From positions 35,588,001-35,652,000 of the forward strand of contig OZ024742.1 of the NCBI GenBank assembly GCA_964016885.1: a DNA stretch of 64,000 nt. Direction: 5' to 3'. A program made the position numbers and the translations under genes. The stretch is from Eledone cirrhosa (Eukaryota). Below are positions 2,821-46,949 of the stretch, piece after piece. The notes beneath the pieces were generated by a model, which was given only the letters and a program-made list of their open reading frames with translations, was not told where the DNA came from and searched no databases. The number at the start of each line of letters is the position of its first letter. Positions within the stretch are counted from its first letter, which is position 1.

Positions 2821-5070
2821 TTAGGTAAGGCGGGTCTTCTCTATTACTGAGTACCGCCAAAGGTCTCGGTCCAGTGACATTGTCTTGGAGAGGTGTAAGC
2901 GTGTGAGGTCGGAATTTATCAGCTCGTCCCATGTTTTTCTGGGTCTGCCTACTCCGTGGCTACCGTCTATCTTTATTGCCCTGCACTTTGTTATACAGCT
3001 GTCGTCTTTCATGCGCATCACGTGACCGTACCAACGTAGCCTTCTCTCGAGTAAACAACATCTGATCCCTCTTATTTCTAATTTTTTCCTTAGTTCGTTT
3101 ATGCTTTGCCGTTCACGTATATTACTATTGCACATCCAGCGGAGCATGCAAGCTTCGTTCCTCTCTAGTCTGCGTATATCCTCTGCACACAATGCCCAGG
3201 TCTCACTGCCATGCAGCATTGCTGTTCGTATGCAGGTATCGTATAACCTGCCTTTCATTTTTAGGGAGAACCCTCTAGCGGCTAATAGTGGTATAAGCTC
3301 TCTGAACTTTTTCCATCCAGTTCTGACTCTAGCTACTGTACTTTCAGAGCACCCTCCCCCACTGCTGATTTTGTCACCCAGATAACGGAAGCTGTCCACT
3401 ATTTCTATAGAACCCTCTGCGCAGTTGAAGGAGCTAGTATTTTGTGGGCACTTGCTGCTACTTATTGCACCAGAGCACCGGCCACATGTAAAATCTATGT
3501 TCTTAGTTAGCTTACCTGTGATCCCACTACATCTTTTATGCACCCATACTTTGCATTTGGGACATAAAATGGAGTTTCTACCTACGCCTTTCCTACACAC
3601 TGAGCATGGCCATTTCCCCGATGGGACCGCCGCCTTATTTTCTTTCCTACAAACTAGAACTTTAGTCTTAGCCAGGTTAATTTTAAGGCCTTTTGATTCT
3701 AGGCCGTGCTTCCACGTTTGGAATTTCTTCTCTAGTTCGGTCATTGATTCAGCTATGAGCGTTAGATCATCTGCGTATAGGAGTTCCCATGGGCAGCCGG
3801 TCTTGAACTCCTCTGTTATAGCCTGAAGGGCAATAATAAATAGTAGGGGGCTAAGAACAGAGCCCTGATGGACACCAACTTTTACGCTAAACTCTTCACT
3901 ATATTCGTTGTTAATTCTAACCTTACTGACTGTTTCTTTATACATGGCTTGTATAGCTCTCACAAGCCATTCGTCAACACCTAGTTTTCTAAGAGACCAC
4001 CAGATAATGGAACGGGGGACTCTGTCGAAGGCTTTCTCCAAGTCGACGAAAGCTAAGTATAGGGGTTTACTTTTAGCTAGGTACTTCTCCTGTAGTTGTC
4101 GTACAATGAAAAGAGCGTCTGTGGTACTTTTGCCTGACACAAACCCGAACTGCATTTCATCTAGGTCAATTCTCTCTCTGATTAGTTGCGCTATTACTTT
4201 TTCCGTGACCTTCATGACCTGGTCGATTAATTTAATGCCTCTATAGTTACTCCTATCTAGGGCATCTCCTTTTCCCTTATAGCAGTTAACGATGATGCTG
4301 CTACGCCATTCCTTCGGAACAACCCCATTCTGTACGACTTGGTTAACTATCCGGGTGACCATGGTGTGTCCCACCGAACCAGATGCCTTCAGCATCTCAG
4401 CAACTATTTCCGAAGGCCCAGCCGCCTTACCCGTCTTCATATCTTTGATTGCCTTACTTATTATACTACCTTCAACTAACACTGCTGGTCCCTCTATTGG
4501 ATCGATCTGGGGGAGACTGTCTTTCTCCCATTTGTTCTCCTCATTTAGAAGCCTTTCGTAGTGACACTTCCAAGCTACCTTCTTATCAGCGTCGGTGATG
4601 GCAAGTATGCCATCATCGTTAAGTACACACTTCTCCCCGACAATATCACGGTTTTCCTTGACACATTGCCTGGCAATCCTGAACACCTCACGTTTTTGGT
4701 CCTCACGTTGTAGAACATGCTTGAACTTTCTTTCCTCTGCTTCCCTTCTTGCGAAGTACACTTGTCTCCTAGCTTCCCTCCTGGCCACTTGATAGTCTTC
4801 TCTACTTCCCCCATCCCGCCATACTTTCCAAGCCTGCTTTTTGGCCTTAATTGACTCCTCCACCTTACTGTTCCACCACCATGTTACTCTCCTCCTACCT
4901 ACAGGCCTGCTCCAGCCACAGACTTCGTCTGCCGCCGTCAGCAGGTTTGCTCTCAGGAATTCCCACTGTTCCTCTATATTATACGACTCTAATTGCTCTT
5001 CCTTACTGTCGAAAGCGTCAAGTAATATGCTTTGAAATTTATTTCTGGCATGGGGTCCTTTAGCTTCCAT
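2821..5070 (-). CDS. RTE reverse transcriptase with embedded PHD finger (C-terminal part of the ORF)
   Basis: GKAAGPSEI, NYRGIKL, FVDLEKAFDRV, GVHQGSVLSPLLF, LYADD, C4HC3 finger, RRLRWYGHV, GRPRKTW. Confidence 0.92.
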   Translation of the reverse strand: MEAKGPHARNKFQSILLDAFDSKEEQLESYNIEEQWEFLRANLLTAADEVCGWSRPVGRRRVTWWWNSKVEESIKAKKQAWKVWRDGGSREDYQVARREARRQVYFARREAEERKFKHVLQREDQKREVFRIARQCVKENRDIVGEKCVLNDDGILAITDADKKVAWKCHYERLLNEENKWEKDSLPQIDPIEGPAVLVEGSIISKAIKDMKTGKAAGPSEIVAEMLKASGSVGHTMVTRIVNQVVQNGVVPKEWRSSIIVNCYKGKGDALDRSNYRGIKLIDQVMKVTEKVIAQLIRERIDLDEMQFGFVSGKSTTDALFIVRQLQEKYLAKSKPLYLAFVDLEKAFDRVPRSIIWWSLRKLGVDEWLVRAIQAMYKETVSKVRINNEYSEEFSVKVGVHQGSVLSPLLFIIALQAITEEFKTGCPWELLYADDLTLIAESMTELEKKFQTWKHGLESKGLKINLAKTKVLVCRKENKAAVPSGKWPCSVCRKGVGRNSILCPKCKVWVHKRCSGITGKLTKNIDFTCGRCSGAISSSKCPQNTSSFNCAEGSIEIVDSFRYLGDKISSGGGCSESTVARVRTGWKKFRELIPLLAARGFSLKMKGRLYDTCIRTAMLHGSETWALCAEDIRRLERNEACMLRWMCNSNIRERQSINELRKKLEIRGIRCCLLERRLRWYGHVMRMKDDSCITKCRAIKIDGSHGVGRPRKTWDELINSDLTRLHLSKTMSLDRDLWRYSVIEKTRLT

Positions 5071-5840
5071 ATTTTTCTCCTGAGGATAGTCCTCTTCCGC
5101 TGTCTAGTACGTCTCGTCCTGACTATGAGGTCGCTAATTATCAGTCTATGTTGGGAGGTGAATTCTTCATGGGGGTGGGATTTAGTGTTAACAACAGACA
5201 CTCTGTCACGTCTTCTGGTAAGGATATAATCTACCTGGCTTGTGTGTTCCCCCGATCTATAGGTGATCAAGTGATTGTCTCGTTTTTTGAAGTTAGTGTT
5301 ACAGATAGTTAAGTTATTTGCGTCGCAGAATTTCAGGATTCTGGAGCCTTCCTCATTTCTAGTACCGAACCCATAGCCTCCATGGATTCCGTCATAGCCG
5401 TCACAATGTTGTCCAACGTGACCATTTAGGTCGCTTGCAATAACTATATAGTCACTGTCGGTTATTTGGGAGGTAGCGAGCATCAGTGTCTCGTAGAATC
5501 TGTCTTTTATAGCGCAGGGCAGTCCGGATTGGGGTGCGTACGCAGATATTACTGTCACCGTAGTTTTATTGAGGACAAGTCTTATTTTAATTATTCTGTC
5601 GTTCACTCTATTTACGTCTATTATCTTATCTGCCCACTTTTCTGCTACCATGATTCCTACCCCACCCAACCCATTGTCATTTCCCACCCAGAAAAGCTTA
5701 TAGCATCGTTCTTTACCCACGATGAATCTAGCCGACCCTCCCCTCCACCTGGTCTCTTGAATACAACAAACATCGACCTCCTTACGTTCAAGCATTTCTA
5801 CAACCTCGTTAGAGCGACCCTTTAAGGTGCCTACATTCAT
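4989..5840 (-). CDS. RTE apurinic-like endonuclease (N-terminal part, frameshifted from the RT)
   Basis: NVGTL, CIQETRW, SAYAPQ, DLNGHVG, QVDYIL, SQHRL. Confidence 0.92.
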   Translation of the reverse strand: MNVGTLKGRSNEVVEMLERKEVDVCCIQETRWRGGSARFIVGKERCYKLFWVGNDNGLGGVGIMVAEKWADKIIDVNRVNDRIIKIRLVLNKTTVTVISAYAPQSGLPCAIKDRFYETLMLATSQITDSDYIVIASDLNGHVGQHCDGYDGIHGGYGFGTRNEEGSRILKFCDANNLTICNTNFKKRDNHLITYRSGEHTSQVDYILTRRRDRVSVVNTKSHPHEEFTSQHRLIISDLIVRTRRTRQRKRTILRRKIWKLKDPMPEINFKAYYLTLSTVRKSN

Positions 5841-6162
5841 GGTACCAACTCTGAAGTTTTGGATTGCGTTTGGAGGGTGGGAGCGGTGGGGCGCGGGGGG
5901 GGGATGGGGTTATGTTAGCCATCCTGGGCCGAAACAAGGAGGAGTGCTTGCATTCTCGTCCACGAGGTGAATTTGGCTTTATCTTTGGCATTGTCGCTGA
6001 GCGTCCACATTTTTCTCTCTTCAACTCTCCAGAATTCCGTAGTCCATCCATCATATCGAAAAGCAACCAGTTAAGCGATAGTATGGGCCTCTGACTTATG
6101 ATTGGTCCACGTAATAATGGTGGTGCGTGGGGGCGGGAGGGAGGGATGATGGGTTGTTAGCG

Positions 6163-8101
<1,939 letters not shown>

Positions 8102-10464: not shown

Positions 10465-10785
10465 AACAGAAAGAACACAACTAGTTAGGAAATTACAAGT
10501 ACAATCCATTAATGGAACAGTAAAAATATGTAAAACATTCCAAAAATGTTGCATCTAATAACTGCATATACACATGTACAGATACAAAGCATATACACAT
10601 GCACACATACAACTCAAAACATACACATCCACACATACAATAACATCCATATCTACACATGCAGACATGCATACATATCTACCTAGTTGATGTGTAAATT
10701 CCAATGAGAGAGTCTTGTGTCTATGTTAGAAACCGACTCTCTCTCTATAGGTAAACATTTGTGAAATGATAAAACCAGAAGAACA
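10465..10785 (+). mobile_element. Dong/R4 family B 3'-end fragment in (CATA)n
   Basis: Encodes RKLQVQSINGTVKICKTF; 3' UTR matches 14933-15097; CATA repeats on both flanks. Confidence 0.85.
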
Positions 10786-10816: not shown

Positions 10817-11425
10817 GGTGGCTGCCAACTCGTTTTCGAGTACGGCCACTACTTTATATCCATGTAGGAGAACCTCTACCAATGCGCTGAACGAGTGTGA
10901 CTTTTTAGTCCAACCAGCGACTTGAAAACTCTGGTACAAACACTACACTTGTGACAATTATTGACACATTGTGCTGGGCCCATGGTACCATGTGACGACA
11001 AGTGCAGAGAGGTCTCCAGATATAAAGCAAAGCCTGTGCCGTGAAGCTTTTATAGTGAGCAAAGGCACTGCACAAAGCCAGTCTCACTCTCTTAACCAAG
11101 ATGATATTTACCAAAAAGAAGAACCAAGTCAACATCATTGGATACCATCAGGGTTGAAGGTGTTATATCAGAGTTTTCCTTCTCCTAGAATTCTGCCTTG
11201 ACAAAGGCTAAGGGGTGATCTCTCCCGGTGATTTTGGATGGCCATTGACTCTTAAGAGCTCCTTTGCCCTTTGACAGGTTTTGTTTTTAGTCCTGCAGAA
11301 TGTCCAAAGTCACCCTCCTCACCAAGAAACCTTGGTGGGGTTGCCAGTTTAGTCGCCAACGACCCGACCATGAGACAGGTTGTACTGGGATACATGTTAC
11401 CAGTAGCACCAACTGGTGACCTGAC
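10817..11425 (-). mobile_element. ~610-bp bipartite non-autonomous RTE-derived element (full copy)
   Basis: Near-identical to 39587-40196; RTE-type 5' UTR motif ggagaaggaaaactctg; RTE-type 3' end gccgtactcgaaaacgagttggcagcc; no long ORF. Confidence 0.75.
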
Positions 11426-11638
11426 ATACACATACATACATACATACATACATACATACATACATACATACATACATACATACATACATACATACATACA
11501 TACATACATACATACATGCATTCTCACATACAACATACATATCTATATACATACATTCTTACATACTCAGAAACACACACACATGCCACAGGCAGCCCGG
11601 GAAGACAGCGGAGTTGAGGTCTATGTGTGTATTGAACA

Positions 11639-12589: not shown

Positions 12590-12764
12590 TGTTTCTATAT
12601 TAGCCACATGGGCATACATATATATATATAGAGAGAGATAGATAGATATATAGATAGATGGATAGATACATCGATTATATACACATATGTATACATACAC
12701 ATACACACACTCACACATACACGCGCACAAACACACACACATACATACACACACATATTACATG

Positions 12765-15097
12765 CATTAGTGGTCCCCAAGAACAAGCACAAACATTACT
12801 GGTCCCCAAGAACAAAGACACCCACTTGGCAAAAAACTACCGACCCATTGCATGCCAGAACCTGATGTATAAGATGTATACAGCCTGCCTGAACCTATTC
12901 CTCCAAGATCACTGTGAAAATAATAACATCATCACAGATGAACAAGCAGCTGGAAAGAAAGGGGTTTGGGATGTGCTGAACAACTCCTAATCAACAAAAC
13001 TGCGATGTCGGAGGTGCGACAACTTAGGAGGAATATGACTACAGTCTGGCTGGACTACAGGAAAGCTTTCGATTCTGTTCCCCACTCTTGGATGATAGAG
13101 GCCCTCCAACTTGCTAAAGTCCCAGACATTATTGTCAGAGCCATAGAGAGGCTGTCTTCTTCTTGGGCTATTATCCTAAGGTTAAAGACAGAGAGGGAGG
13201 ACTCTATTTTCACTGATAAAATAAAATATTGCAGGGGTATATTTCAGAGGGACAGTCTCTCTGTGATATTATTCATCTTGTCATTAAACCCCTTGTCCTT
13301 TCTGCTCAAGAAATGTGAGGGATACATCATTGGCTCACAGGAGGACAGGAATACGAACCTAACCCATAATTTCTTTGTGGACGATCTGAAACTCTATGCC
13401 AAGAACATGGATGGGATGAAGAAAAAACTTGACCTGGTTACAACGTTCTCAAAGGAATGGAGTTTGGCCAAGATAAATGCTCATACATGACTGTAAAGCG
13501 GGGAAAAACAACAACCCAATCTAACAACATTGTCATCAATGGCCTAACTGTTTCACCGATATCTGATGAGGTCTGCTACAGATACCTGGAGATAGATGGG
13601 AACATATCCTATAATGGTATCTGTAATAAAGAACGCGCAACCAGGGAATATTACACCCGATTAAGAAATATCTGGTCATCGGAACTCTCTGCGCAAAACA
13701 AAACAGTGGCTCACAATGTGTTTGCTGTGCCTGTCCTAACACCAACGTTTGGAATACTCAATTGGACGATAGACGAAATCCGAGCAGTTGATGTTGGAAC
13801 TCGAAAAATACTGAACAACACCGGAAACTTCCACATCAACAGTGACATAGACCGCCTTTACTTGAAACGTAAGCAGGGAGACAGAAGCCTAACATCAGTC
13901 CAGACAACATTTGAATGTCGCATCATATCTCTACGACATCTACGAACCTCGAAGCGTAGGAGCCGGTTTCTCGAGCAAGTCTATCTGCATGAAACAGATA
14001 AGATCATGAGAGTTGAGAAGGAACTCCTCGAGAGATATTCCCTGTGTGACAATCAAAAACTCACACCCAGGTATGTCGCTCAACAGTATCGCAGTGACTC
14101 CATGGATGAAAAACTGCATGCTTGTCAGCAAAAAAATCTTGTATGGATATGTTGCCAGGAAGCTCCAGAGTGAGAGTAATATAGATAAGGAAAGTAATCT
14201 ATCTTGGACCAAAAACCGCTATATTGGCTCCCACTTTGAAGGATACGCTTTAGCAATCCAGGAACAGGAAATTAACACGAAATACCTGATTCACAAAAGA
14301 GATACGGATGCAGGCAAAACACCTAGATGTGATAACAAGTGCAGACTCTGCAGAACTAATATCGAGGATATCACCCATGTCATCAGCAGCTGTCCAAAGA
14401 TGTCATCGCGGTACTATCTACCTATGAGGCATGATGTAGTGGCCAAAACACTGTACAATGCAGTTCGTAAAAAAGATAGCCCTGATAATAAACACATTAA
14501 AAGCTACAGCAATGTGGAAGACATCCATGTACATAATATGAAAGAGTACTGGTGGAATGTTCCAGGAAAAACCCCAATAAAAGGCAGGCATAACAGACAG
14601 ATATTATGATATGGGACAGGGAGAAGTAAGCATGCACAGTAGTGGAAATTAGCTGCCCAGCAGATGCCAATATAATATCAAAGATTAGTGAAAAGGAGAA
14701 TATTTATGCAGAGCTGATGAGAAATCTGCAGATACTCCATCCTGATTACACCTTCAGATTTATGCCTGTGATTATTGGGGCACTGGGATATGTTAGTAAC
14801 TGCCTCAATACAAATCTTGAGAAGCTAGGATTCACAGGAACAGAAAGAACACAACTAGTTAGGAAATTACAAGTACAATCCATTAATGGAACAGTAAAAA
14901 TATGTAAAACATTCCAAAAATGTTGCATCTAATAACTGCATATACACATGTACAGATACAAAGCATATACACATGTACACATACATACATATCTACCTAG
15001 TTGATGTGTAAATTCAAATGAGAGAGTCTTGTGTCTATGTTAGAAACCGACTCTCTCTCTATTGGTAAAACTTTGTGAAATTATAAAACTAGAAGAA
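12765..15097 (+). mobile_element. 5'-truncated, frameshifted Dong/R4 family B retrotransposon
   Basis: Fragmented ORFs with NYRPIACQN, WLDYRKAFDSVPH, FFVDDLKLY, CRLC-H-C, RHD, EISCP; ends in (CATA)n. Confidence 0.9.
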
Positions 15098-15270: not shown

Positions 15271-15572
15271 TAGGAAATTACAAGTACAATCCATTAATGG
15301 AACAGTAAAAATATGCAAAACATTCCAAAAAGTTTGCATCTAATAACTGCATATACACATGTACAGATACAAAGCATATACACATGCACACACAACTCAA
15401 AACATACACATCCACACATACAATAACATCCATATCTACACATACATGCAGACATGCAGACATATCTACCTAGTTGATGTTGCGTAAATTCCAATGAGAG
15501 AGTCTTGAAACCATGATAGAAACCTACTCTATCTATTGGCAAACATCTTTGAAATTATAAAACCAGAAGAAC
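15271..15572 (+). mobile_element. Dong/R4 family B 3'-end fragment in (CATA)n
   Basis: Matches 14860-15097; CATA repeats on both flanks. Confidence 0.85.
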
Positions 15573-17241: not shown

Positions 17242-17494
17242 TATATATATATAATATGTATGTATGTATAAATGTATGTATATATTATACATGTATATGA
17301 ATTCTCATACGTGTTGCGATATTTGTAAAATCAAAAAGAAAACGTATTCCCTCGTGCTTTCCAATTTTGTCAGTGACTTGATTCTATATGGTTTGTAAAT
17401 TCCTTATCGCAACAAGTTTTAACCATTTCATGACCATATTTATAATGAAAACATTCTATTTTAATTAATTAAAATGTATGATCTGGTTTCATTA

Positions 17495-19185
17495 ATTTCT
17501 AGATTTTCAGCAATACAGAGAGAGGGGAGTTGGTTTCATCATAGACACAAGACCCTTTCAATGGTATTTAGGCAATATCTTCTAGGTAAATATATATGTT
17601 TATTTGTAAGTGTTTGTGTTTCTGTGTGTATGCGTGTATGTGTTTTAATGTATGAGTGGAACTGCATGTTTTGAAGTATATGTGCACACGTGCATGTGTT
17701 TCTGTGTCTATACATATATATATGCAGTTGTTGCATGCAAAGTTTCTGAAATGTTTTACGTATATTTAGTTCCATTAATAAACTGCACTTGTAAATTCCT
17801 AACTAGTCCCTGCTCTTTCTAGTTCTGTGACGCCAGCTTCTCGGGGCACTTGGTAGTGTATCCAAGAGCCCCAATGATCACAGGTATAGTCAGAGTGGAG
17901 TATCTGCAGATTCCTCATCAGTTCAGCATAAATCTTCTCCTTTTCACTGATCATATACGGACATTTATCCTGGACACACTCCATTCTTGTATCTTTCGAG
18001 AAAGTCGTAACCACGTCAATGTTTTCCTTCATACCATTTATGTACTTGGCGTAGTGTCAGGTCATCCACAAAGAAGTTATGAGGTAGGTTGCTATTTCTA
18101 TCCTCCTGTGAACCATTTATGTATCCTTCATATTTCTTGGGAAGAAAGGACAATGGGTTTTCTTGAAATATTCCTGTGCGATATTCTATTTTATCAGCGA
18201 AAAGGAAGTCTACCTTCTCAGGATTTAACTTAAGAATAGTAGCCCAAGAAGAAGATAGATTCTCTGTGGGACTTTAGCAGGTCGGAGGGCCTCTATCATC
18301 CAAGACTGAGGAGCAGAATCGAATGTTTTTCTGTAATCCAGTCAGACTGTAAACATGTTCCTTCTATGTCACCACACCTCTGACATCGCGGTTTTGTTAA
18401 TTATTTGTTCAGCACACACCCAAACACCTTTCTTCCCAGCTGCTTGCTCATCTATAATATTATTATTGTCACAGTAATCTTGGAGAAATAACTTCCGGCA
18501 GGCTTTATACATTTTATATATTTGGTTCTGGCTTGTAATGGGTCGGTTTTTGTTTGCCAAGTGGGTGTCTTTGTTCTTGGGGACCAATATTGTTTATGTT
18601 ACTCCATTGACAGCTTGCTGGTAGAGGTTGAAGAGATACATCCGATAGAAAATCAATGTTTTGAACCAGTAGCCGACATTCAAGTCTCTTCCTGGTACTT
18701 ATCTTGAGATTTTGCTATCACAGTCTCAAGGGTATGATAGTTGTGTAGAGAAGGGGTAATAGGTCGTTTATATCTCCTTCAGCCACACTGCATCTTGTTT
18801 GAATTTCTTTTCTCCACCCCATATTTTTCTCTAGAAGGAATCTGTCTTTCTGGGATGGGGTCTCAGTGACATTTATTACTTTGCCCTTCATATCTCTATA
18901 GACTCTATAGATGTTTGGTTTCGTCTGAATCTTTTATTAATTACTTTTCTTTCATCTACCTTCTTCTGGTATCGACGTTTTCGCCGACAACTCTCAATTC
19001 TTGTTTGAGCGTGATCAGCTTATATTGAAAAGTTCTGGTTGTATTGTCTCCAAACATCATTTCTATTTTATTTTTCACTCTTTGTCTGTCAAATGTATTG
19101 TTTTTATTTTTGTTTTTGTTTGCATGTGAAGAGCATCCTATATCTTATAGTTTTCCGTTCGCTAACAATCATTTTTCTATCTTTG
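17495..19185 (-). pseudogene. Old, deleted Dong/R4 family B copy
   Basis: Remnants VPKNKDTHLA, DEQAAGKKGVW, IYAELMRNLQIL; borders (TATG)n. Confidence 0.8.
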
Positions 19186-19187
19186 TA

Positions 19188-19218
<31 letters not shown>

Positions 19219-19278
19219 TGTATGTATGTATGTATGTATGTATGTATGTATGTATGTATGTATGTATGTATGTATGTT

Positions 19279-20211
19279 ATTCTGGTTTTATAATTTCACA
19301 AAGTTTTACCAATAGAGAGAGAGTCGGTTTTTAACATAGTCACAAGACTCTCTCATTGGAATTTACACATCAACTAGGTAGATATGTATGTATGCATGCA
19401 TGTGTAGATATGGATGTTATTGTATGTGTGGATGTGGATGTTTTGAGGTGTATGTGTGCATGTGTATATGCTTTGTATCTGTACATGTGTATATGCAGTT
19501 ATTAGATGCAACATTTTTGGAATGTTTTATATATTTTTACTGTTCCATTAATGGATTGTACTTGTAGTTTCCTAACTAGTTGTGTTCTTTCTGTTCCTGT
19601 GAAGCCTAGCTTCTCAAGATTTGTATTGAGGCAGTTACTAACATACCCCAGTACCCCAACAATCACAGGCATAAATCTGAAGGTGTAATCAGGGTGGAGT
19701 ATCTGCAGATTTCTCATAAGTTCTGCATAAATATTCTCCTTTTCACTAATCTTTGATATTATATTGGCATCTGCTGGGCAGCTAATTTCCACTACTGAGC
19801 ATGCTTACTTCTCCCTGTCCCATATCATAATATCTGGTCTGTTATGCCTGCATTTTATTGGGGCTTTTACTGGAACATTCCACCAGTACTCTTTCATATT
19901 ATGTACATGGATGTCTTCCACATTGCTGTAGCTTTTAATGTGTTTATTATCGGGACTATCTTTTTTACGAACTGCATTGTACAGTGTTTTGGCCACTACA
20001 TCATGCCTCATAGGTAGATAGTACCGCGATGACATCTTTGGACAGCTGCTGATGACATGGGTGATATCCTCGATGTTAGTTCTGCAGAGTCTGCACTTGT
20101 TATCACATATAGGTGTTTTGCCTGCATCCCTATCTCTTTTGTGAATCAGGTATTTCGTACTAATCTCCTGTTTTTGGATTGCAAAAGCGTATCCTTCAAA
20201 GTGGGAGCCTG
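19279..20211 (-). mobile_element. Dong/R4 family B 3' fragment (CCHC and RLE) in (TATG)n
   Basis: ORFs 19805..20218 and 19502..19792 contain CRLC, RHD, HNRPDI, EISCP; TATG repeats on both flanks. Confidence 0.9.
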
Positions 20212-20592: not shown

Positions 20593-20921
20593 GGTATCCA
20601 CTGATGTTGACTTGTTCTTCTGTTTGGTAAATATCATCTTGGTTAAGAGAGTGGGACTGGCTTTGTGCAGTGCCTTTGCTCACTATAAAAGCTTCACGGC
20701 ACAGGCATTGCTTTATATCTGGAGATCTCTCTGCACTTGTCGTCACATGGTACCATGGGTCCAGCACTATGTGTCAATAATTGTCACAGGTGTAGTGTTT
20801 GTACCAGAGTTTTCAAGTCGCTGGCTGGACTAAAAAGTCACACTCGTTCAGCGCATCAGTAGGGGTTCTCCTACATGGATATAAAGTAGTGGCCGTACTC
20901 GAAAACGAGTTGGCAGCCACC
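20593..20921 (+). mobile_element. 5'-truncated copy of the 610-bp RTE-derived element
   Basis: Matches 39866-40196; TATG repeats on both flanks. Confidence 0.8.
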
Positions 20922-22169: not shown

Positions 22170-22631
22170 CACACACACATGCGCGCACATAGATACACAT
22201 ATGCATACACATACATAAAGACATACACACATACCCAGACACATATGTGTACATATACGCATATTTCTGTGAGTGTGTTTACATCTTCTAGAAGGGTGTT
22301 TTTGTATATGTTATCAGTGTACACACGCTTATACACACACATACATATGTATGCATTAATGTATGTATATATGTATGTGTGTAGGTATGTGTGAGTATGC
22401 ATGTTTGTATGTATATATATGTATGTGTGAAACTATGTATGTATGTATGCATGTATGTATATATGTATGTGTGAAGGTATGTATGTATATATGTATGTGT
22501 GAAGGTATGTATGTATATATGTATGTGTGTAGGTATGTGTGATTATGTATGTATGTATATATATATGTATGTGTGAAGGTATCTATGTATATATGTATGT
22601 GTGAAGGTATGTATCTATGAATGTATGTACG

Positions 22632-22662
<31 letters not shown>

Positions 22663-22739
22663 ATATGTATATATATATGAATGCATGTATATATGTATGT
22701 ATGTATGTATATATGTATGAATGCATGTATATATGTATG

Positions 22740-25700
22740 TTTTCTCTTTCTCTTAATTTCGAGTATATTTTTTTGACCGGCCACCTTCCTGGTGGCAAGG
22801 TTGTAAAAGAAAAGAAATTGTCATCCCTTGAATCGCAAGAATGTTTTGCATATTTTGAAGGTGCCAGCTATCGCAGCCATTTGTAGACTATGAATTAGGG
22901 AGCTGCGCTTTTTGTCCGCAAATCCAAGTTCGGTCATACTTTGGTCCAAGCGGGTTGGTATATAACCCGTAGCACCAATAATGATGGGTATGAAGCTAAA
23001 GGTGTATCTTGGATACTGGATTTGTAAGCTCCTCATCAATGGTCCGTAGATGTCCTCCTTCTCCTGTATTTTTCTGACAACGTTTACATCAAGTGGGCAG
23101 CTGATCTCCACAACAGAACACGTTTTCAATGTGTGGTCCCAAACTACAATATCAGGCCGGTTGTGCTTTAATTTGGTGGCAGTTTTTATTTTCAGGTTCC
23201 ACCAGTATTCCTTAGTGCCATCTGTCTCAATATATTCTTCCTCGTTTGTTGTTAATTTTGTTTTCCGAAGTGCGTTCCAGATAGTTCTAGCTATCCCATC
23301 GTGTCTCATGGGGAGGTAGTAGCGAGATGACATTCTTTCGCAGCTGGCAACAATGTGGCTTACATCCTCGATCTTTGTTTTACATAGCCTACATTTATTG
23401 TCAGCTGCTGGCCCTCCTCTTTTGTGCAGCAGATATTTGGTAGGGAGTTCTTGTTCCTGTATTGCATAGAGATATCCCTCAAGGTGTGATGTCATAAACT
23501 TGTCGGAACTCCATGCCAGGCTTTTTGAGTGGTTTATCCCCTCTATGGTCTGTGTTTTACGCCTCAAGTATCCATGCACAACTTTCTCTGTAAATTGTTC
23601 AATTTTTTTTTCTTGTTTGAACATTGAATAGGATCTTCCGATTTCTCTGGGTGAGAGATTTATATCAGGCTTTATTCCATATCTCTCCTCCAGATCAGTC
23701 GCTATTCTAATGATATTTCTTTTTTCATGCTCATAAACCTGAGCAAGATGGTCGCCAACCTTTTTCCTCTGTTGAAGGTGTTGCTTCAGTGTTACTATCC
23801 GGGTCTCATATGTTGTTAATATTGATTTTAGACCCCGGCCACCTTCCTTGCGTGAGAAGTATAGCCTATCCACATCACCATTGATGTTAAAGTTCCCAGT
23901 AACACTGAGAAGTTTACGAGTTCTAACATCCATCTCACTTAGTTCTTGCAATGACCAGTTCAGTAGGCCAAATGTTGGCGTTATAATTGGCACAGCATAG
24001 GTATTGTGGGCAATGTATTTGTTGTATGCTGACAGTTCTGATGACCATATTTTTTTTACTCTTCTGAGGTATTCAGTTCTGGTTCTCTCCTTATTTATGG
24101 GTCCATCATATCTGACATTCTCATCCTGTCCAAGATATCTGTAGTTGTCACCTGACTGCAGAGGTTGTATTGTCAGGCCGTTCATATCTAGATTTCTAGA
24201 GGAGGGCACAGCTCTTCCACGTTTTACTGCCAAATATGCACACTTGGACTCACCAAATTTCATTTTGATGTCGGTTGAAAATTGTGTAATGAGGTCCAAT
24301 TGTTTCTTGATGTCATTGATATTTGGCCCATACAACTTCAGGTCATCAACAAAGAAAAGATGGGAGATACTTCTGGGCCCACTTCTTTGTCCACCTTGTT
24401 TCCTGAGTAGGTAAGATAGTGGATTCAGTGAGAGAACGAAGAGTAGTACTGACAAGCTATCACCCTGAAAGATGCCCTTCTGGTAATGTATCCTATCAGT
24501 CTTAACCTGCTCCTTCTCACCTCTAAGGATCAAATTGGTGTACCAGTTCTTGGTCAGGCGTTCAACAGCAGCTACTAATGGTTGTGGGACTTTAGCTAAC
24601 TGTAAAGCCTTAATAATCCACCCATGAGGTACACTATCAAATGCTTTTTGATAGTCCAGCCACACGACAGTCATGTTTCTGCGATTCTTTGTTGTTTTTT
24701 CCTGAATCATTTTGTTAGTTAGTAGGTGATCTATGCAACCCCACACCCCCCTCTTTCCACCAGCTTGCTCAGGTGTTATGATGTTGTTGGTAGCACAGTG
24801 ATCCTGTAAGAACAGGTTAAGGCACCCAGTATATAATTTATACATGATGTTTTGGCAGGCAATTGGGCGGTAATTTTTAGCAAGGGTGGTTTGGCTATTT
24901 TTGGGAATGAGGAGAGTAGTGGCAGTTGATAACCATCTGGGCAGTTCTTGTGTGCCCTTAATGGTTTCTGTAAACAGCCGTATGAGATCTTGCCGATAGA
25001 AAGTGAAATTCTTCAACCAGTATCCTGTAATGAGGTCTGGGCCTGGCGATTTCCTATTCGACATTTTCTGTAGAGCTGTTTCCAGTATTGACCCATCTAT
25101 GTCATATTGTTTTGTCTGGACATGTTGGCAGTAGTCCTGTTCCAGTTGTTTTAGCCAATTAGCTTGTCTGTTGAATCCGTCATCCGTTTCCCATACAGAT
25201 CTCCAGTAGTTCTCAACCTGTTCTTTTGAAGGGGTGTCGTTTACAGGGATTGAGCTTTTGCCACCGAAGCTGCGATAAACTGATTTAGGATCTCTGGCAA
25301 ACAATCTATTTAGCACTTGTCGTTTATGGGCTGTTGACTTATATTTTAGTCTTTCTGTTGTAGCTGTGAGTTGTTGTTTCAACTGGTGTAATTTGGAGTT
25401 CAAAGTTTTAAATTTGGTATCTCCAAATCGTCTCTCTAACTTTTTCTTTAGGTCTTCCTGGTGTCGTGTGAAGTTTCTCTCTATGTTGCATTTCATAACG
25501 ACTGCGATGTGTGAGATACTTCGTCTCAGGGACAAAATTTTGGTTTTTAAATTTCGCATCCACGCTGGTTCAGGCTTTCTGTTTGTATCTTGATTGCGTG
25601 GTTTTAGATGTGTGTTATATGATAGCAATGTGACAGCTGAAACATATAACAAAACATTGAGCGTTTCAAATGTCGTTTCTACACCTTTAGATCGTATAGC

Positions 25701-26474
25701 CTTCAGATAATTGCCAGCTATTTCGTTCACCGCTTCCAATTCCAATTTAGTGGGTTCTTTACTGACTCTAGTGTTGTATGGTCTGTCACTCACATTAAGG
25801 CTGTGTATCTCTTGAAACATATCGTTCCATATCACTTGTAGGGTGCCCACAAGTTTTTGGTGCTCTGTTTGTTCAGTAGAGTCATGAATTGCAGCCTCGT
25901 TGTTGATGTGGTGACAATTACTACGAGAGTCAGCTGACCTTTCTCGCTGTTCTTCAGTGGAAGTGGGATGGATTTCAGCAAAATTGTTGGTGAGCTGTTC
26001 ACTGTTAGATTTAGCCGGCCATTCTCTTTGTCTGTCAGTGGAGGTGGGGTGGTTGTCTACAAGGGCTGTATTTGTAGTATCACTCGATTCCGTTAGATGT
26101 ATCAATTTACATCTAATGATACGTTTTGCCTGTTCATTTAGATGCTTTGGAGAAAAGTCTAATTCTGGGTGTTTGGAGTTCCATAAAGTTTTTAGCCTTT
26201 GCATAAAACCGAACTTTTGGGGTTCAGATTGTTTGTATGCTTCATATAATTCTTTGTTAAGCTCGTAGCTCCACTGTATACAACGGTTGTAATTGCGATT
26301 TGGTCGAAGGAGACTTGTACTTTTTGCCATGATGAGTTCGTCTATTCACTAATATTTTGTATTTATTTTTTTTAAATAGTCGATGATCTTCTTTAAAAGT
26401 TACGACAAAGTTCTGTCAGAATCAAATTTAAAGTTATTCACAGCTTGGGTAATATTTCTTTTCAGTTAGTTTTT
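22740..26474 (-). mobile_element. Full-length R4/Dong-clade retrotransposon (family A) in (CATA)n
   Basis: Single intact ORF, short UTRs, TATG repeats abut both ends. Confidence 0.92.
22821..26330 (-). CDS. 1169-aa RT plus CCHC plus restriction-like endonuclease polyprotein
   Basis: KSPGPDLI, NYRPIACQN, WLDYQKAFDSVPH, GIFQGDSLS, FFVDDLKLY, CRLCKTKIEDVSHIVASC, RHD, HNRPDIVVWD...VEISCP...KEDIY. Confidence 0.95.
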   Translation of the reverse strand: MAKSTSLLRPNRNYNRCIQWSYELNKELYEAYKQSEPQKFGFMQRLKTLWNSKHPELDFSPKHLNEQAKRIIRCKLIHLTESSDTTNTALVDNHPTSTDRQREWPAKSNSEQLTNNFAEIHPTSTEEQRERSADSRSNCHHINNEAAIHDSTEQTEHQKLVGTLQVIWNDMFQEIHSLNVSDRPYNTRVSKEPTKLELEAVNEIAGNYLKAIRSKGVETTFETLNVLLYVSAVTLLSYNTHLKPRNQDTNRKPEPAWMRNLKTKILSLRRSISHIAVVMKCNIERNFTRHQEDLKKKLERRFGDTKFKTLNSKLHQLKQQLTATTERLKYKSTAHKRQVLNRLFARDPKSVYRSFGGKSSIPVNDTPSKEQVENYWRSVWETDDGFNRQANWLKQLEQDYCQHVQTKQYDIDGSILETALQKMSNRKSPGPDLITGYWLKNFTFYRQDLIRLFTETIKGTQELPRWLSTATTLLIPKNSQTTLAKNYRPIACQNIMYKLYTGCLNLFLQDHCATNNIITPEQAGGKRGVWGCIDHLLTNKMIQEKTTKNRRNMTVVWLDYQKAFDSVPHGWIIKALQLAKVPQPLVAAVERLTKNWYTNLILRGEKEQVKTDRIHYQKGIFQGDSLSVLLFVLSLNPLSYLLRKQGGQRSGPRSISHLFFVDDLKLYGPNINDIKKQLDLITQFSTDIKMKFGESKCAYLAVKRGRAVPSSRNLDMNGLTIQPLQSGDNYRYLGQDENVRYDGPINKERTRTEYLRRVKKIWSSELSAYNKYIAHNTYAVPIITPTFGLLNWSLQELSEMDVRTRKLLSVTGNFNINGDVDRLYFSRKEGGRGLKSILTTYETRIVTLKQHLQQRKKVGDHLAQVYEHEKRNIIRIATDLEERYGIKPDINLSPREIGRSYSMFKQEKKIEQFTEKVVHGYLRRKTQTIEGINHSKSLAWSSDKFMTSHLEGYLYAIQEQELPTKYLLHKRGGPAADNKCRLCKTKIEDVSHIVASCERMSSRYYLPMRHDGIARTIWNALRKTKLTTNEEEYIETDGTKEYWWNLKIKTATKLKHNRPDIVVWDHTLKTCSVVEISCPLDVNVVRKIQEKEDIYGPLMRSLQIQYPRYTFSFIPIIIGATGYIPTRLDQSMTELGFADKKRSSLIHSLQMAAIAGTFKICKTFLRFKG

Positions 26475-26780
26475 ATGTATGTATGCATGTATGTATGTAT
26501 GTATGTATGTATGTATGTATGTATGTATGTATATATATGTATGAATGCATGAATGTATATATGACTCTGTGTACACACATATATATATTTAGTCTTTTCA
26601 GTCTAAATGTTCACACCAATGAAATCTTGATTATGTAACTTTGCATAAACAAAGGAAGATACTCAACTCCATCAAAAGTATACACACACCTCGACCCCAC
26701 CCTCACACATACATATATATATATGTATATATATTTATATATATATATATACATATAATACATATATATATATATATATA

Positions 26781-27273: not shown

Positions 27274-27678
27274 AGACCCCTTAGCCTTTGTCACAAGGCA
27301 GAATTCTAGGAGAAGGAAAACTCTGATATAACACCTGCAACCCTGATGGTATCCAATGATGTTGACTTGTTCTTCTTTTTTGGTAAATATCATCTTGGTT
27401 AAGAGAGTGGGACTGGCTTTGTGCAGTGCCTTTGCTCACTATAAAAGCTTCACGGCACAGGCATTGCTTTATATCTGGAGATCTCTCTGCACTTGTCGTC
27501 ACATGGTACCATGGGCCCAGCACTATGTGTCAATAATTGTCACAAGAGTAGTGTTTGTACCAGAGTTTTCAAGCCGCTGGCTGGACTAAAAAGTCACACT
27601 TGTTCAGCACATCGGTAGGGGTTCTCCTACATGGATATAAAGTAGTGGCCGTACTTGAAAACGAGTTGGCAGCCTCCA
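27274..27678 (+). mobile_element. 5'-truncated copy of the 610-bp RTE-derived element
   Basis: Matches 39794-40196; TA repeats on both flanks. Confidence 0.8.
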
Positions 27679-31734: not shown

Positions 31735-32570
31735 GCATCATCACTATCATCAACACCACCACCGTCACCACCACTACCCCCCCCCACCACCACCACCGTC
31801 ACTACTACCACCACCACCGTCACTACTACCACCACCGCCGTCACTACCACCACCACCACCACCACCGCATTATCATCACCATCATCACCATCATCACCAT
31901 CCTCATCGTCATTATCTTGCAGCAACATAAACACCAGCACTACATCCACAACCACTACCGCCACCACAACCTCCACTCCACCCCACTCCCACCACTACCT
32001 ACACAACCATCATTACAACCACTCACCACCAGACTGCCACCATCACTACTACCACCATAACCACCACCTACAAAAATACCATTACCATCACTATCACCAC
32101 CCACCACTACCGGCAGCAGCAGCAGCACCACCACCAACACTACCATCACAACCACCACGACAACCATTACCACCACCACCACCACAACCACCACGACAAT
32201 CATTACCACCACCACCACCACCACCACCACCACCACCACCACCACCACCACCACAACCACAACCACCACGACAACCATTACCACCACCACCACCACAACC
32301 ACGACCACAACCACCACAACAACCATTACCATCACTCACCACCACTACTGGCAGCAGCACCACCACCACAACAACCACCACCACCACCACCACAACCACA
32401 ACCACCACGACAACCATTACTACCACCACCACCACAACACGACCACAACCACCACGACAACCATTACCATCACTCACCACCACTACTGGCAGCAGCAGCA
32501 CCACCACCAGCACCACCACCACAACTACCACCACCACAACCACCACCACCACCACCACCACTCACATAAC
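31735..32570. repeat. (ACC/CCA)n low-complexity tract with internal duplications
   Basis: Direct reading. Confidence 0.9.
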
Positions 32571-39570: not shown

Positions 39571-39586
39571 ATGTGTATATGTATGT

Positions 39587-40194
39587 GTCAGGTCACCAGT
39601 TGGTGCTACTGGTAACATGTATCCCAGTACAACCTGTCTCATGGTCGGGTCTTTGGCGACTAAACTGGCAACCCCACCAAGGTTTCTTGGTGAGGAGGGT
39701 GACTTTGGACATCCTGCAGGACTAAAAACAAAACCTGTCAAAGGGCAAAGGAGCTCTTAAGAGTCAATGGCCATCCAAAATCACCGGGAGAGATGACCCC
39801 TTAGCCTTTGTCAAGGCAGAATTCTAGGAGAAGGAAAACTCTGATATAACACCTGCAACTCTGATGGTATCCAATGATGTTGACATGTTCTTCTTTTTGA
39901 TAAATATCATCTTGGTTAAGAGAGTGGGACTGGCTTTGTGCAGTGCCTTTGCTCACTATAAAAGCTTCACGACACAGGCATTGCTTTATATCTGGAGATC
40001 TCTCTGCACTTGTCGTCACATGGTACCATGGGCCCAGCACTATGTGTCAATAATTGTCACAAGTGTAGTGTTTGTACCAGATTTTTTTCAAGTCGCTGGC
40101 TGGACTAAAAAGTCACACTCGTTCAGTGCATCGGTGGGGGTTCTCCTACATGGATATAAAGTAGTGGCCGTACTCGAAAACGAATTGGCAGCCA

Positions 40195-40196
<2 letters not shown>
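39587..40196 (+). mobile_element. ~610-bp bipartite non-autonomous RTE-derived element (full copy)
   Basis: Four copies in the window; RTE 5' UTR and 3'-end motifs. Confidence 0.75.
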
Positions 40197-41060: not shown

Positions 41061-41351
41061 CCAGCTAACTAGATAGATAGATAGATATATTTCTTTTATT
41101 TGCCACTAGGGCATCAAAAGTGGGACAAGTACAAAGGGGGGAGTTTACACAAAAAGGCGTCCTCAATAAGGAGGAGGCAATAACAAAATATAAAAATAAA
41201 ATAAGATATAACAAAAAATAAAATTTTTAACAAAATCCTCAATAGAGAGGAGGCGCCTTGGGGGGTCGCACACACCCCCGAAAAAAGTGTGCAACCCTTC
41301 TCCTCAGGAGCACAGAGAAGGGGTGCTCCCTTGGTCTTTCATCTTCCTCAC

Positions 41352-44300
41352 CTATAGTCTGATGTAGAGTGAAGGCCCATTCACACGGGCCATTCTCGCC
41401 ACTTTCACCCATCTTTCATAGAAACGGCTGGGGTGCAGCACCTCTCTCTCCATCCTGATCCTTCTTCCGAAATGATATCGGAAGAAACGGACCAGTTGTT
41501 GGCCAGAGAGAAAGGTGCCCGACCTCAGTCCTTTCAGACGCGTCCACCATACAACCTCTTTCGCCATGGCTATTACGCACAGAAACACCGCCTCTGCTTC
41601 ATCTTTGAAGGGGGGAGGCGGCTTGATCATTACAATAGACTCGGTGGTCAACCGGATCGGTCCCACCCTTGACAGCAGTTGTTCGACATAGCCCCACAGA
41701 TCGGCTACGCCCGAGCAGTGTACTAATGCGTGTGCAACGGTTTCCTCGTCGCACACGCATCTGGGACAGATCTTTTTGGCGGGGTCCCTACCCGGGCGCC
41801 CGTGTCTGTAGAGCCTTTCTCGAACGGGTAAAGCCCCTCGGTAGCACTGCCAGGCCAGGGACTTCTGGAAGTTGTCCATAGGTCCCGGGCTGAATGTCCT
41901 ACCGAACAGGCTGGCCAGTTCGTCCTCCTCCATGTCTAGGGCTTCTCCGAGGGCGTCGTCGCACCTGCTGCGTACCAGCCCTCTATAGAATGTTGCGGTG
42001 GAGTCTCCACTGATAACCGGATCCGCCTGCCAGAGGGCGGTGAGCGCCTGGGCACACTCAGTGTGCCAGGCGCCCAGTTTTCTCGGTCTTTGCTTGACCC
42101 AGGATTGCAGCTCGGTGAGTGAGACGAGTCTGGGAAAGGTTCGTCTCACAAACGAGGCCCACACCGGTTGTCCGGTGAGGAATACGTAGAGGTGCCGTAG
42201 CCTTAATGCGTGTTTACGCATCATTAGCCACGGCATCCCCAGCCCTCCTTTCGAAGGGTGTTGACAGCAGATGGATCTCCTCACCATAGGAGCCCGCCTC
42301 TTCCAAAGGAATTGGAAGAGCGCGCGCTCCATCTTGGTGAGGGTTTCCCTTGGGCAGGGCACTACGGTCAGGCGGTAGTAGATGACGGACGCTATGTAGG
42401 TGTTCGCCACCTCCGCCCGGCCTTTCAGGGATAGTTTGCAACTGGCCCACTTCTGGGTCAGTGCAAACACCCTGTTCGTAACCTCCGCCCAGTTTTTCTC
42501 CACCTGGAGGTCCGGTCCGAACCAGACCCCGAGCAACTTCACCGGGCCCTCCGTCCAGCGTCCGACGACGCTATCGGAGGGCATCGGTCTGCCCCTCCAC
42601 GTGCCGAGTTGCAAACCGATCGACTTGTCCCGGTTCAGCTTAGCCCCTGTGAACTTTTCGTACTCCTCCAGTAAGGTGCCGACCGCCTCGATTTCGGAGG
42701 CCGTCGACACCATTACTGTCACGTCATCGGCGTAGGCCGACACCGCTTTCCGCAATCCCGGTTCCAAAGGGATGCCCTGCAACAACTCCAACTTCCGCAG
42801 TAGTGGCTCGAGAGTCAACACATACAGAAGGGAGGAGAGAGGGCACCCTTGTCGGATGGACCGCGCGATTTTGAACGGCTCCGAGAGGTAGCCGTTCACC
42901 TTGACCCTAGAGCAGATGCGGCTGCTGTGCATAGCAGTGATCCAGCCCCTGAAAACGGGTCCGAAGCCTGCCGCCGCTAGCACCGCATCCAGGTAACCAT
43001 GGTCGACCCTATCGAACGCCTTAGATTGATCCAAGTTGATCAGAGCCCCACCAAAGCCGGGTTCGTTCCCAACCCTCTCTATGATGTATCGCATGAGGTG
43101 GAGGTTGTCATGGATGGACCTGGACGGGATAGCGCATGTCTGCGCATCTCCCACCAGGTTGCCCACGACAAGCGCCAACCTCTTTGCTAGCACCTTGGCC
43201 AAAATCTGTAACTCTGTATTTAGCAGTGTTATGGGCCTGAAGTTACTTATTTCGTCCCCCTTGTTCTCGTCCTTCCTCACTAGCGTGACTACGCCCTTGG
43301 TCACAGTACAGGGAATTCTCCCGTTCTGTTGCCAGTTGCAGTAGACCGCCTCGAGGAGATCGGGGAACAAGTCCGGCATAGCTAGATATAATTCGTAAGG
43401 AAGACCATCGAGACCCGGGGATTTGCGTTTGCCGCATTGGCTCAGCACGTCCTCTATCTCAGCGGCCGAAATCGGCTCTTCGCAGGACTTCGCCTCCCTG
43501 TCCGAGAGGCGCGGCAGGCCGTCGAGGTATGGACCGAAGTCCACGTTCCCAACCGGCTCCCCGCCCCTCCCGAACAGTCGGGCAAAGTGCCTTTGAAAGG
43601 CCTCACACATCTGCTTAGGCTCAAGAATCGCCCGTCCATCCAGGTCTCGCAAAGACCGGATGGTGGATTTAGTTCCACTGTTGGCCTCTGTCACGCGGGC
43701 CCAGCTAACAGCTTTGGTCCCCTCGTTCCCTAGAGCACGTATTTTACTTCGGACAACGCAGCCTTCGTGCTTCGCGTCGAAAAACTGGCTCAAAGCCGTT
43801 CTCGACGCTAGCACTCTGGCCACGTCGCCGCTTCTAATTGCCTCTTCTACTCTATCTATTAGCTCCCTTTCCTTCCTATTCCTATCCGCAGCTAGAACCT
43901 TACTAAATTCTATCGAGACTACTCTAATCTCTCTCTTTAGAGATACCCACCACCTGCTGTTGACGATCGCTCCAGTCAACCGTTCCTTAACTAACGTACT
44001 AATCCGATTCCTGTAGGCTCTACTTGCCGGCAAGGACAAGTTGAGCTTCCAGTAACCGGGGCCCTGTCTATGAGTTCTGTCAAGGTTGACCATGCAGGTC
44101 ACTAATTTGTGGTCTGAATAGCCAACAATGCGCATTTTTGGACAACTTAAAAAGTCCTTATCCTTAATTCTAACTAAGAACCTATCTAGGTACGACCTAG
44201 ATGATCCGCTACGATTTGCCCAAGTCCAGGTTGGCGCAGTCGGAAAATCTAGTCGATATCTATCGGCCAGGTCAAATCGACCGATTAACCCTTTGAGGCT

Positions 44301-44789
44301 ATTACACCCCTCTCTATCGGGGCAGGCCCCTACGTAGTCCCAGCGTGCATCTAGGATACCATTCCAGTCCCCCACTAATAGCAAGGAGCGGGACGTCCCT
44401 AGAAAAGTCTCCAGACGATGGAAGAAGTCCGGCCGCATTGACCCGAAAGGGCCGTAGGCAGCTACCAACCTAAACGCTCCGCCTTTACCACTGCCAAGGT
44501 CCAGAACCACTAGTCGACCCTCCGGGTCCAAATGTACCATCTGTGTTGCGAGACCCAGATGTTTTTGCAGCAGAACGACAACTCCACCCCCACCTCCGGG
44601 CTGACAGAGAGATGCGTGCATCTCAAAGTCATCAAAGGTGGGGGCCAGCTGTCGCACGTTGCTGATCCGGGCCTCGCAAATAACCATCACATCTATACGT
44701 TGTGACCTGAGGTCATTTAGAAGCATTGCTTGCTTCCAAGTTGAGCCCAGGCCACGCGCATTTAAACAGCCTACTCTTAGCATAGCCAT
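41352..44789 (-). CDS. Tx1 ORF2: APE, RT and C-terminal zinc finger
   Basis: LNARGL, GDWN, SYLDRF, SDH, KSPGLDG, NFRPITLLN, DQSKAFDRV, RQGCPLS, AYADD, CPRC...HALVHC; first ATG at 44789. Confidence 0.95.
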   Translation of the reverse strand: MAMLRVGCLNARGLGSTWKQAMLLNDLRSQRIDVMVICEARISNVRQLAPTFDDFEMHASLCQPGGGGGVVVLLQKHLGLATQMVHLDPEGRLVVLDLGSGKGGAFRLVAAYGPFGSMRPDFFHRLETFLGTSRSLLLVGDWNGILDARWDYVGACPDREGCNSLKGLIGRFDLADRYRLDFPTAPTWTWANRSGSSRSYLDRFLVRIKDKDFLSCPKMRIVGYSDHKLVTCMVNLDRTHRQGPGYWKLNLSLPASRAYRNRISTLVKERLTGAIVNSRWWVSLKREIRVVSIEFSKVLAADRNRKERELIDRVEEAIRSGDVARVLASRTALSQFFDAKHEGCVVRSKIRALGNEGTKAVSWARVTEANSGTKSTIRSLRDLDGRAILEPKQMCEAFQRHFARLFGRGGEPVGNVDFGPYLDGLPRLSDREAKSCEEPISAAEIEDVLSQCGKRKSPGLDGLPYELYLAMPDLFPDLLEAVYCNWQQNGRIPCTVTKGVVTLVRKDENKGDEISNFRPITLLNTELQILAKVLAKRLALVVGNLVGDAQTCAIPSRSIHDNLHLMRYIIERVGNEPGFGGALINLDQSKAFDRVDHGYLDAVLAAAGFGPVFRGWITAMHSSRICSRVKVNGYLSEPFKIARSIRQGCPLSSLLYVLTLEPLLRKLELLQGIPLEPGLRKAVSAYADDVTVMVSTASEIEAVGTLLEEYEKFTGAKLNRDKSIGLQLGTWRGRPMPSDSVVGRWTEGPVKLLGVWFGPDLQVEKNWAEVTNRVFALTQKWASCKLSLKGRAEVANTYIASVIYYRLTVVPCPRETLTKMERALFQFLWKRRAPMVRRSICCQHPSKGGLGMPWLMMRKHALRLRHLYVFLTGQPVWASFVRRTFPRLVSLTELQSWVKQRPRKLGAWHTECAQALTALWQADPVISGDSTATFYRGLVRSRCDDALGEALDMEEDELASLFGRTFSPGPMDNFQKSLAWQCYRGALPVRERLYRHGRPGRDPAKKICPRCVCDEETVAHALVHCSGVADLWGYVEQLLSRVGPIRLTTESIVMIKPPPPFKDEAEAVFLCVIAMAKEVVWWTRLKGLRSGTFLSGQQLVRFFRYHFGRRIRMEREVLHPSRFYERWVKVARMARVNGPSLYIRL

Positions 44790-44813
44790 GTTGGTGGTGA
44801 AGAGAAAAGGCAC

Positions 44814-46830: not shown

Positions 46831-46870
<40 letters not shown>

Positions 46871-46879: not shown

Positions 46880-46949
<70 letters not shown>

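Follow-up and report, generated by a model that had tools for sequence, protein, structure and literature searches.

We analysed a 64,000-nt stretch of Eledone cirrhosa DNA (contig OZ024742.1, positions 35,588,001–35,652,000; hereafter the window) that carries a copy of a long interspersed nuclear element (LINE), here called family A, together with pieces of a second, diverged family, family B. It is highly probable that family A is a very young R4/Dong-type element sitting at a fixed register in (CATA)n microsatellites, its own endonuclease likely nicking a pre-existing array and priming reverse transcription there. The CATA preference of families A and B is real and strongly supported, as had been proposed in the initial annotation, which was made from the sequence alone and placed both families in (CATA)n.

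An exact-pattern search of the whole genome yielded 1656 family A 3′ ends, 1489 of which (90%) were directly followed by CATA. The remaining ends started with CA (86 ends), with C and a base other than A (8 ends, none of them CT), or with a base other than C (73 ends). Position 2 of the junction was near-invariant, with A in 1575 of the 1583 ends starting with C. CATA followed random window positions in 1.0% of cases, and flank enrichment was far above this background. Reading of 38 of the 81 exceptional ends revealed that 37 lay within CATA arrays that carried a point change or some additional bases and that one belonged to an older, divergent family A copy. None of these 38 ends had a (TAA)n flank, which places family A outside Dong as narrowly defined by that target. 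Among the fetched loci, CATA followed the 3′ end in 67 of 74 for family A and 49 of 56 for family B, and 4455 family B 3′ ends followed by CATA were counted genome-wide, a figure that has no genome-wide denominator. A comparison LINE of the same window, a Tx1-like element, ended in TATC-type repeats, not CATA, in the 30 loci read; because the query included the first TATC units, this comparison indicates only that CATA is not general. The site specificity suggested initially is to be read as specificity for a repeat that occurs at many thousands of sites in the genome, not for one locus.

The window copy of family A has a whole open reading frame (ORF), is truncated in its 5′ untranslated region (UTR), and has CATA arrays on both sides (22346–22740 and 26474–26563; Table 1). 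The self-BLAST of the window was done with masking of simple repeats. A complete ORF of 1169 amino acids (aa) with a restriction-like endonuclease (RLE) had been predicted, and this was confirmed as an open frame over 26330–22821 on the minus strand, with its motifs conserved in an alignment. On the other hand, the copy is not the intact full-length element that it had been taken for. When its first 350 nt were used as a query, 40 scored matches were obtained, all 100% identical, and in the 30 matches that were fetched, all 29 copies other than the window copy ran on upstream of its end as near-identical sequence. The true 5′ end was located about 488 nt beyond the end of the window copy, and 33 of 40 whole loci shared one start position, giving a full element of 4223 nt with a 5′ UTR of 632 nt and a 3′ UTR of 81 nt. 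The very short UTRs described for the window copy were thus accurate at the 3′ side (about 80 nt), whereas the 5′ UTR of about 145 nt is not the true one.

Family A is very young and forms a burst of near-identical copies. The 33 full copies differed by 0.27% on average, with the ORF intact in 23 of them, and the 1169-aa frame was kept in 26 of the 40 whole loci; because these loci were picked as best matches to the query, the divergence and intactness figures describe the youngest family A copies only. Precise 3′ ends and variable 5′ truncation were seen across the copies. Two full-length copies (L092 and L096) were preceded by additional segments of their own 5′ UTR, as expected from template jumping. 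In comparisons with L101:412-4634, a full-length locus of this genome, family A was found at about 99% identity under four organism labels, in long contigs (X3 and X5) and as many variants (X1 and X7). Twelve of the 23 positions differing from L101, picked from the 40 rows listed, were invariant among the 33 full copies of this genome, so that the present burst looks lineage-specific. A look for expression listed no RNA data set that contains the element. A GGACGT motif was common to the 5′ ends of family A (L091) and three of the relatives described below (L213, L215, and L216), about 15–35 nt from the end, and similar words were also present in family B and another relative (L212); the motif often closes a hairpin. 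It is reminiscent of a downstream promoter element, as in the internal promoters of LINEs. Rfam at E ≤ 1 gave no ribozyme family in one full family A locus and two full family B loci. A descriptor scan for hepatitis delta virus (HDV)-like ribozymes, which had no positive control, was negative at the 5′ ends, and its sole match (L216) was far from the 5′ end.

Table 1. Features of families A, B, and C in the window (positions counted from its first nucleotide).
Feature	Position	Strand	Remarks
Family A copy, 5′-truncated within the 5′ UTR	22740..26473	-	carries about nt 489–4223 of the 4223-nt element
Single ORF of family A, 1169 aa	22821..26330	-	one unbroken frame, 26330–22821
3′ UTR of family A, 81 nt	22740..22820	-	invariant end junction GAGAAAA/CATA
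5′ UTR remnant of family A	26331..26473	-	last 143 nt of the 632-nt 5′ UTR
3′ flank of family A, degenerate (CATA)n array	22346..22739	-	downstream of the copy
5′ flank of family A, (CATA)n array	26474..26563	-	upstream of the truncated 5′ end
Family B, short 3′ fragment	10469..10783	+	between two CATA arrays
Family C, 610-bp non-autonomous repeat	10817..11426	-	same arrays, opposite orientation; a neighbour, not a Dong piece
Family B, 2.3-kb copy, 5′-truncated, frameshifted, internal 3′ UTR deletion	12757..15097	+	CATA array at 3′ side, only a CA-rich run at 5′ side
Family B, short 3′ fragment	15273..15571	+	within the array after the 12757..15097 copy
Older B-related copy, about 70–75% identical, internally deleted	17482..19188	-	5′ end adjoins array 19189–19276; 3′ end followed only by CATACAT
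Family B, 0.9-kb copy, 5′-truncated	19277..20209	-	CATA arrays on both sides

The 1169-aa protein has the RLE-type layout of the R2 group, in which a reverse transcriptase (RT) is followed in the single ORF by a CCHC knuckle and a PD-(D/E)xK-type RLE. Pfam detected RVT_1 at aa 475–726 and, weakly, zf-RVT. The CCHC residues (C980/C983/H992/C997) and the RLE motifs (RHD at 1009–1011, PD at 1059–1060, E1075, K1091, and Y1095) were conserved across a 96-row alignment, and the RLE lysine (K1091) sits in the following helix, likewise across the alignment. In the AlphaFold model of the protein (predicted local distance difference test score, pLDDT, of 89), ranks 1–7 of the PDB fold matches were all R2 proteins, with E values of 7e-35 to 2e-28 and 16–20% identity; R2Bm, R2Tg, and R2Pm were the best matches among solved structures in both sequence and fold. 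At the N-terminus, no zinc finger was matched by Pfam, and three predicted helices (about aa 20–75) with a conserved pattern starting at W20 precede a disordered linker (aa 81–149). This three-helix domain is likely Myb-like, and its best look-alike in the Atlas, Myb_Rap1 (0.86), may serve as a lead only.

Arrays were also examined at the 5′ ends, where an upstream array was counted at a length of at least 12 nt (window background, 1.6%). Such arrays were present at 24 of 27 truncated and 32 of 34 full family A ends, and at 35 of 46 truncated and 7 of 7 full family B ends. The 3′ flanks of family A followed variants of the local array (CATATATA, CATAAATA, and CATGG) and were as short as CAT (L127). 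In the 36 copies with at least 40 nt on both sides, out of 114 two-ended copies, variant 8-mers were common to both flanks more often than in shuffled pairs (Jaccard index 0.116 versus 0.038, p = 0.0004), and array purity correlated between the two flanks (rho = 0.40, p = 0.014). The shared variants and the locally varying 3′ flanks suggest that the array likely existed first and was split by the element, and is not a tail. Median array lengths upstream and downstream were 73 and 29 nt for family A (58 copies, p = 0.002) and 70 and 37.5 nt for family B (42 copies, p = 0.03), and arrays shorter than 20 nt were found at 3 upstream and 18 downstream sides of the 58 family A copies. These comparisons cover the copies with an upstream array, a choice that slightly favours the longer-upstream result. 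Microhomology at truncated ends averaged 1.7 nt in family A (30 of 36 ends without extra bases) and 1.6 nt in family B (23 of 30 ends), compared with 0.85 nt in simulations, in a set that includes the loci with exceptional junctions.

A metagenome scan for relatives yielded 41 loci, and the ends of 20 were read. Two relatives (L215 and L216) had (CATA)n at both ends. (CTTA)n was found at both ends of L213, at the 5′ end of L212 and L220, and at the 3′ end of L217, L218, L222, and L223, and TAA or TAAA flanks were found at L225, L227, and L229; six others had no repeat flank. We read the (AAT)n run at the start of L217 as coding for a low-complexity linker, not as a flank. The last two, L234 and L242, are distant RLE relatives and ran into rDNA-like sequence downstream, which resembles the 3′ end of an 18S rRNA gene. 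L234 opens with the same 10 nt too, which looks like a target duplication and would point to an rDNA site of another kind.

RT trees were built, the last of them from 24 rows, with the outgroups of the window left out and the bootstrap not fully settled. Two protein searches gave no named Dong, R4, or Rex6 sequence among their matches, and the TAA-flanked loci and unnamed insect proteins were used as stand-ins for these and as the nearest outside group. All CATA and CTTA elements formed one clade (100/100) separate from the stand-ins, which were about 30–35% identical to family A over aa 400–1169 and lay on a separate branch. Family A paired with an Argonauta protein (100/100), its closest named protein match (65%), and next with L215 and L216 (95/97). 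The deepest branch of the clade was CTTA-flanked, and family B grouped loosely with CTTA elements while using CATA. In the approximately unbiased (AU) test, a clade of family A, family B, and the Argonauta protein was rejected (p-AU = 0.004), and a single origin of CATA use was not (p-AU = 0.095). The rejected sisterhood of families A and B, together with relatives elsewhere in (CATA)n or (CTTA)n, suggests that the tetranucleotide habit is an older trait of a sub-lineage. Families A and B thus appear to belong to a tetranucleotide-targeting branch of R4/Dong-like elements, a membership based on architecture and on the stand-in sequences. With respect to Dong, whose published target is (TAA)n, the specificity shift suggested initially is upheld, but not as one that two sister families share. 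In the N-terminal alignment, whose rows are too few for such a distinction, no residue was judged to separate CATA- from CTTA-flanked elements.

Target-primed reverse transcription (TPRT) is established for R2, and the steps proposed for family A are modelled on it. By analogy, the protein would bind its 3′ UTR RNA and the CATA array. Since upstream arrays are longer and rarely below 20 nt, whereas downstream arrays are often short, most of the footprint on the array would fall on the upstream side of the insertion point, with the Myb-like domain as the likely contact; longer upstream arrays would also fit a lengthening during insertion, or a crowding of the downstream side by family C, which with its relative family D borders 22 of 114 downstream arrays. 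A nick made by the RLE in the (TATG)n strand, in one register, would prime the RT, which would transcribe the RNA starting at the RNA 3′ end. The cDNA would then be connected with the upstream array through 1–5 nt of microhomology, either where the 5′ end is full or where synthesis stopped. Because each insertion leaves an array on both sides, copies of families A and B and of other repeat-seeking elements would stack.

Several observations weigh against this mechanism and the lineage history given above. No target-site duplication of 1–30 nt stood clearly above shuffled pairs, although a short one would be masked by the repeat. In four runs against L101, no empty-allele joint across the element was present among the 15 matches listed of 452, and the unique 5′ flank of L101 matched 364 nt of a contig under one other organism label that stopped at the repeat, which the comparison skipped. 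The upstream array was missing at 11 of 46 truncated family B ends and 3 of 27 truncated family A ends, several of which look like later rearrangements. Pfam does not call a Myb-like domain in the 1169-aa protein, and the N-terminal domain modelled alone from its single sequence, a weak model (pLDDT 64), had no Foldseek match in the PDB. The CATA-flanked relatives are two loci from one metagenome, and the CTTA-flanked ones all come from one sample series.

Two alternatives dispense with a specific cut in the array. The RNA might carry a CATA tail and insert with low specificity, the 5′ arrays being tails of neighbours or the product of homology-driven landing. Copies are indeed often stacked, the 5′ array of one copy in some cases doubles as the 3′ array of an adjacent A or B copy, and RTE elements make microsatellite tails, as a passage of PMC9115989 describes. 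However, 3′ flanks that vary with the local array down to CAT, variants private to a copy and common to both its flanks, and isolated copies with non-element DNA beyond both arrays (L014 and L007 with arrays at truncated 5′ ends, and full-length L101 likewise) make this very improbable. Non-specific insertion, with copies merely surviving or co-locating in repeat-rich, gene-poor DNA, would draw on the microsatellite richness of the genome. We give it practically no credence: a base-precise register in 90% of 1656 almost undiverged copies, against the 1% background, refutes it unless the counts are assembly artefacts, and the Tx1-like LINE, within the limit of its query, is followed by its own TATC-type repeats.

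A further alternative refines cutting by the element's own endonuclease and does not replace it. Here the enzyme would recognise the shape of a repeat or any repeat of the degenerate form C-(A/T)-T-A, the array supply of the host would decide between CATA and CTTA, and no true switch would have occurred in the clade. In this genome, (CATA)5 arrays number 15,592 and (CTTA)5 arrays 5 by the same form of pattern; because the latter are almost absent, the zero count of CT junctions cannot show that family A discriminates CATA from CTTA. Within the clade, moreover, the repeat label tracks the sample, and family B sits loosely among CTTA elements. Against such a degenerate reader, family A and two CATA elements from a different sample form a supported branch, a single CATA origin is not rejected, and position 2 of the junction hardly varies. 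We regard it as a tentative possibility, which carries appreciable weight. A wider proposal seems doubtful to us, namely that an undescribed R4/Dong branch switched between (CTTA)n and (CATA)n through small changes in the Myb-like domain, that its members lengthen the upstream array and so build their own targets and help to make the dominant microsatellite of the host, and that in this genome the microsatellites are shared out between three or more retroelement lineages. The self-built target is suggested by the excess of CATA over CTTA arrays and by the roughly twofold greater length of upstream arrays relative to downstream ones.

The features of family A were compared with those of known systems as given in passages of the cited sources. 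Dong of Bombyx mori, DongAg, DongBg, and ostracod Dong1/2 of the R4 clade resemble family A in the single ORF, RT, C-terminal RLE, and microsatellite insertion (PMC7998251, PMC3812793), whereas their published target is (TAA)n (PMC7998251, PMC3812793) and that of family A is (CATA)n. Dong/R4 elements have no N-terminal zinc fingers and a divergent Myb/SANT-like N-terminus (PMC7998251), to which the likely Myb-like domain of family A may correspond. R2, from which TPRT is inferred for family A, is 17–20% identical to it and has an rDNA target and N-terminal zinc fingers (PMC7998251), of which Pfam matched none in family A. B. mori Dong carries a 5′ HDV-like ribozyme (PMC3774820), and target-site duplication is stated for all known R4 elements (PMC3636483). 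Targets are diverse among RLE clades (PMC4640811). The Waldo elements (WaldoAg1/2 and WaldoFs1) target ACAY microsatellites, which include ACAT and hence the CATA repeat of family A (PMC3812793), but use an apurinic/apyrimidinic endonuclease (APE; R1 clade by the title of a cited reference) where family A uses an RLE, and the common CATA target would be convergent.

Dong-R4 elements have been described as abundant or active in cephalopods (PMC13282606, PMC8967140, PMC9115989, PMC10294476), and the cephalopod passages of these four sources, including one supplement of PMC13282606, give no target sequence for them. In Octopus vulgaris, five recently active families with 1129 near-full insertions amount to 4.73 Mb (PMC13282606), or about 4.2 kb each by division of the published totals. 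In O. bimaculoides, a Dong consensus with a full ORF had no polymorphism signal (PMC9115989). Our literature search found no CATA or CTTA target for R4/Dong elements; Repbase, Kojima and Fujiwara 2004, and Fell et al. 2025, the last described second-hand in passages of PMC13708176 and PMC13580325, lie outside it and may list one.

The initial annotation counted five family B pieces between 10.4 and 20.2 kb of the window, and five B-type pieces were found, four of them young and one older. The CATA-type junction described for the young pieces was also found, in the form ...AGAA(G/T)AA followed by CA(CA)TAC, and CATA repeats at most of the 5′ ends were seen as described, in four of five pieces, the piece at about 12757 being scored as having no array. 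Full-length family B is about 4100 nt (L138). It is about 49–53% identical to family A over the RT/RLE region, and the DNA is alignable only in two short patches. Its copies are about 94–98% alike and frameshifted, which indicates that family B is older than family A. Family C has further window copies at 20593–20921, 27275–27677, and 39586–40196, with 2338 first-look candidates, and nearly all of the 30 loci read were flanked on each side by ATGT/AT-type repeats, with family C facing the opposite way to Dong. Its 5′ motif may be RTE-like, and no autonomous partner of it was identified. Its tails were ruled out as the sole source of the target, since family C is itself repeat-flanked on both sides and families C and D end at only 22 of the 114 downstream arrays. 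Family D, which is related to family C, ends at 15658 and 20573.

The window also contains a two-ORF APE LINE at 41263–46920 (minus strand), with further 3′ pieces at 47075–47347 and 55006–56910. It encodes a 592-aa ORF1 and a 1153-aa ORF2 with endonuclease, RT, and zf-RVT, a layout that is L1/Tx1-like. This LINE, the one used for the comparison above, lies in (TATC)n at both ends, truncated 5′ ends (L181 and L204) adjoin TATC arrays, and it is possibly a second microsatellite-specific family. Another LINE ORF2 extends over two frames at 2821–5909 (minus strand; APE and RT), and its RT domain is followed by a PHD-like finger. A 204–299-bp tandem repeat was found at 6162–7861, a (CAC)n array of about 270 units at 31754–32561, and at 52319–52902 a 45-bp tandem array whose source is a common dispersed repeat.

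To our knowledge, target reading and target change by RLE retrotransposons are known in detail only for R2. Family A offers a 1169-aa enzyme apparently without zinc fingers, many intact near-identical copies, and natural relatives on CATA, CTTA, and TAA. If it cuts the CATA repeat itself, it would be a compact natural enzyme for studying target choice and change, and relatives on different repeats would allow a direct test of whether the target is decided by one Myb-like domain. The CATA repeat, present at many thousands of sites, offers no single safe site. The surprise is moderate, as target shifts among site-specific LINEs are well known and Waldo is already on ACAY. The activity of Dong-R4 in octopus has been published, and no paper found in our search gives the (CATA)n target. 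Family A would thus supply a target for a LINE family reported to have the most recently active LINE insertions in O. vulgaris, and the low Dong polymorphism called in O. bimaculoides may reflect junctions that are buried in microsatellites and map poorly.

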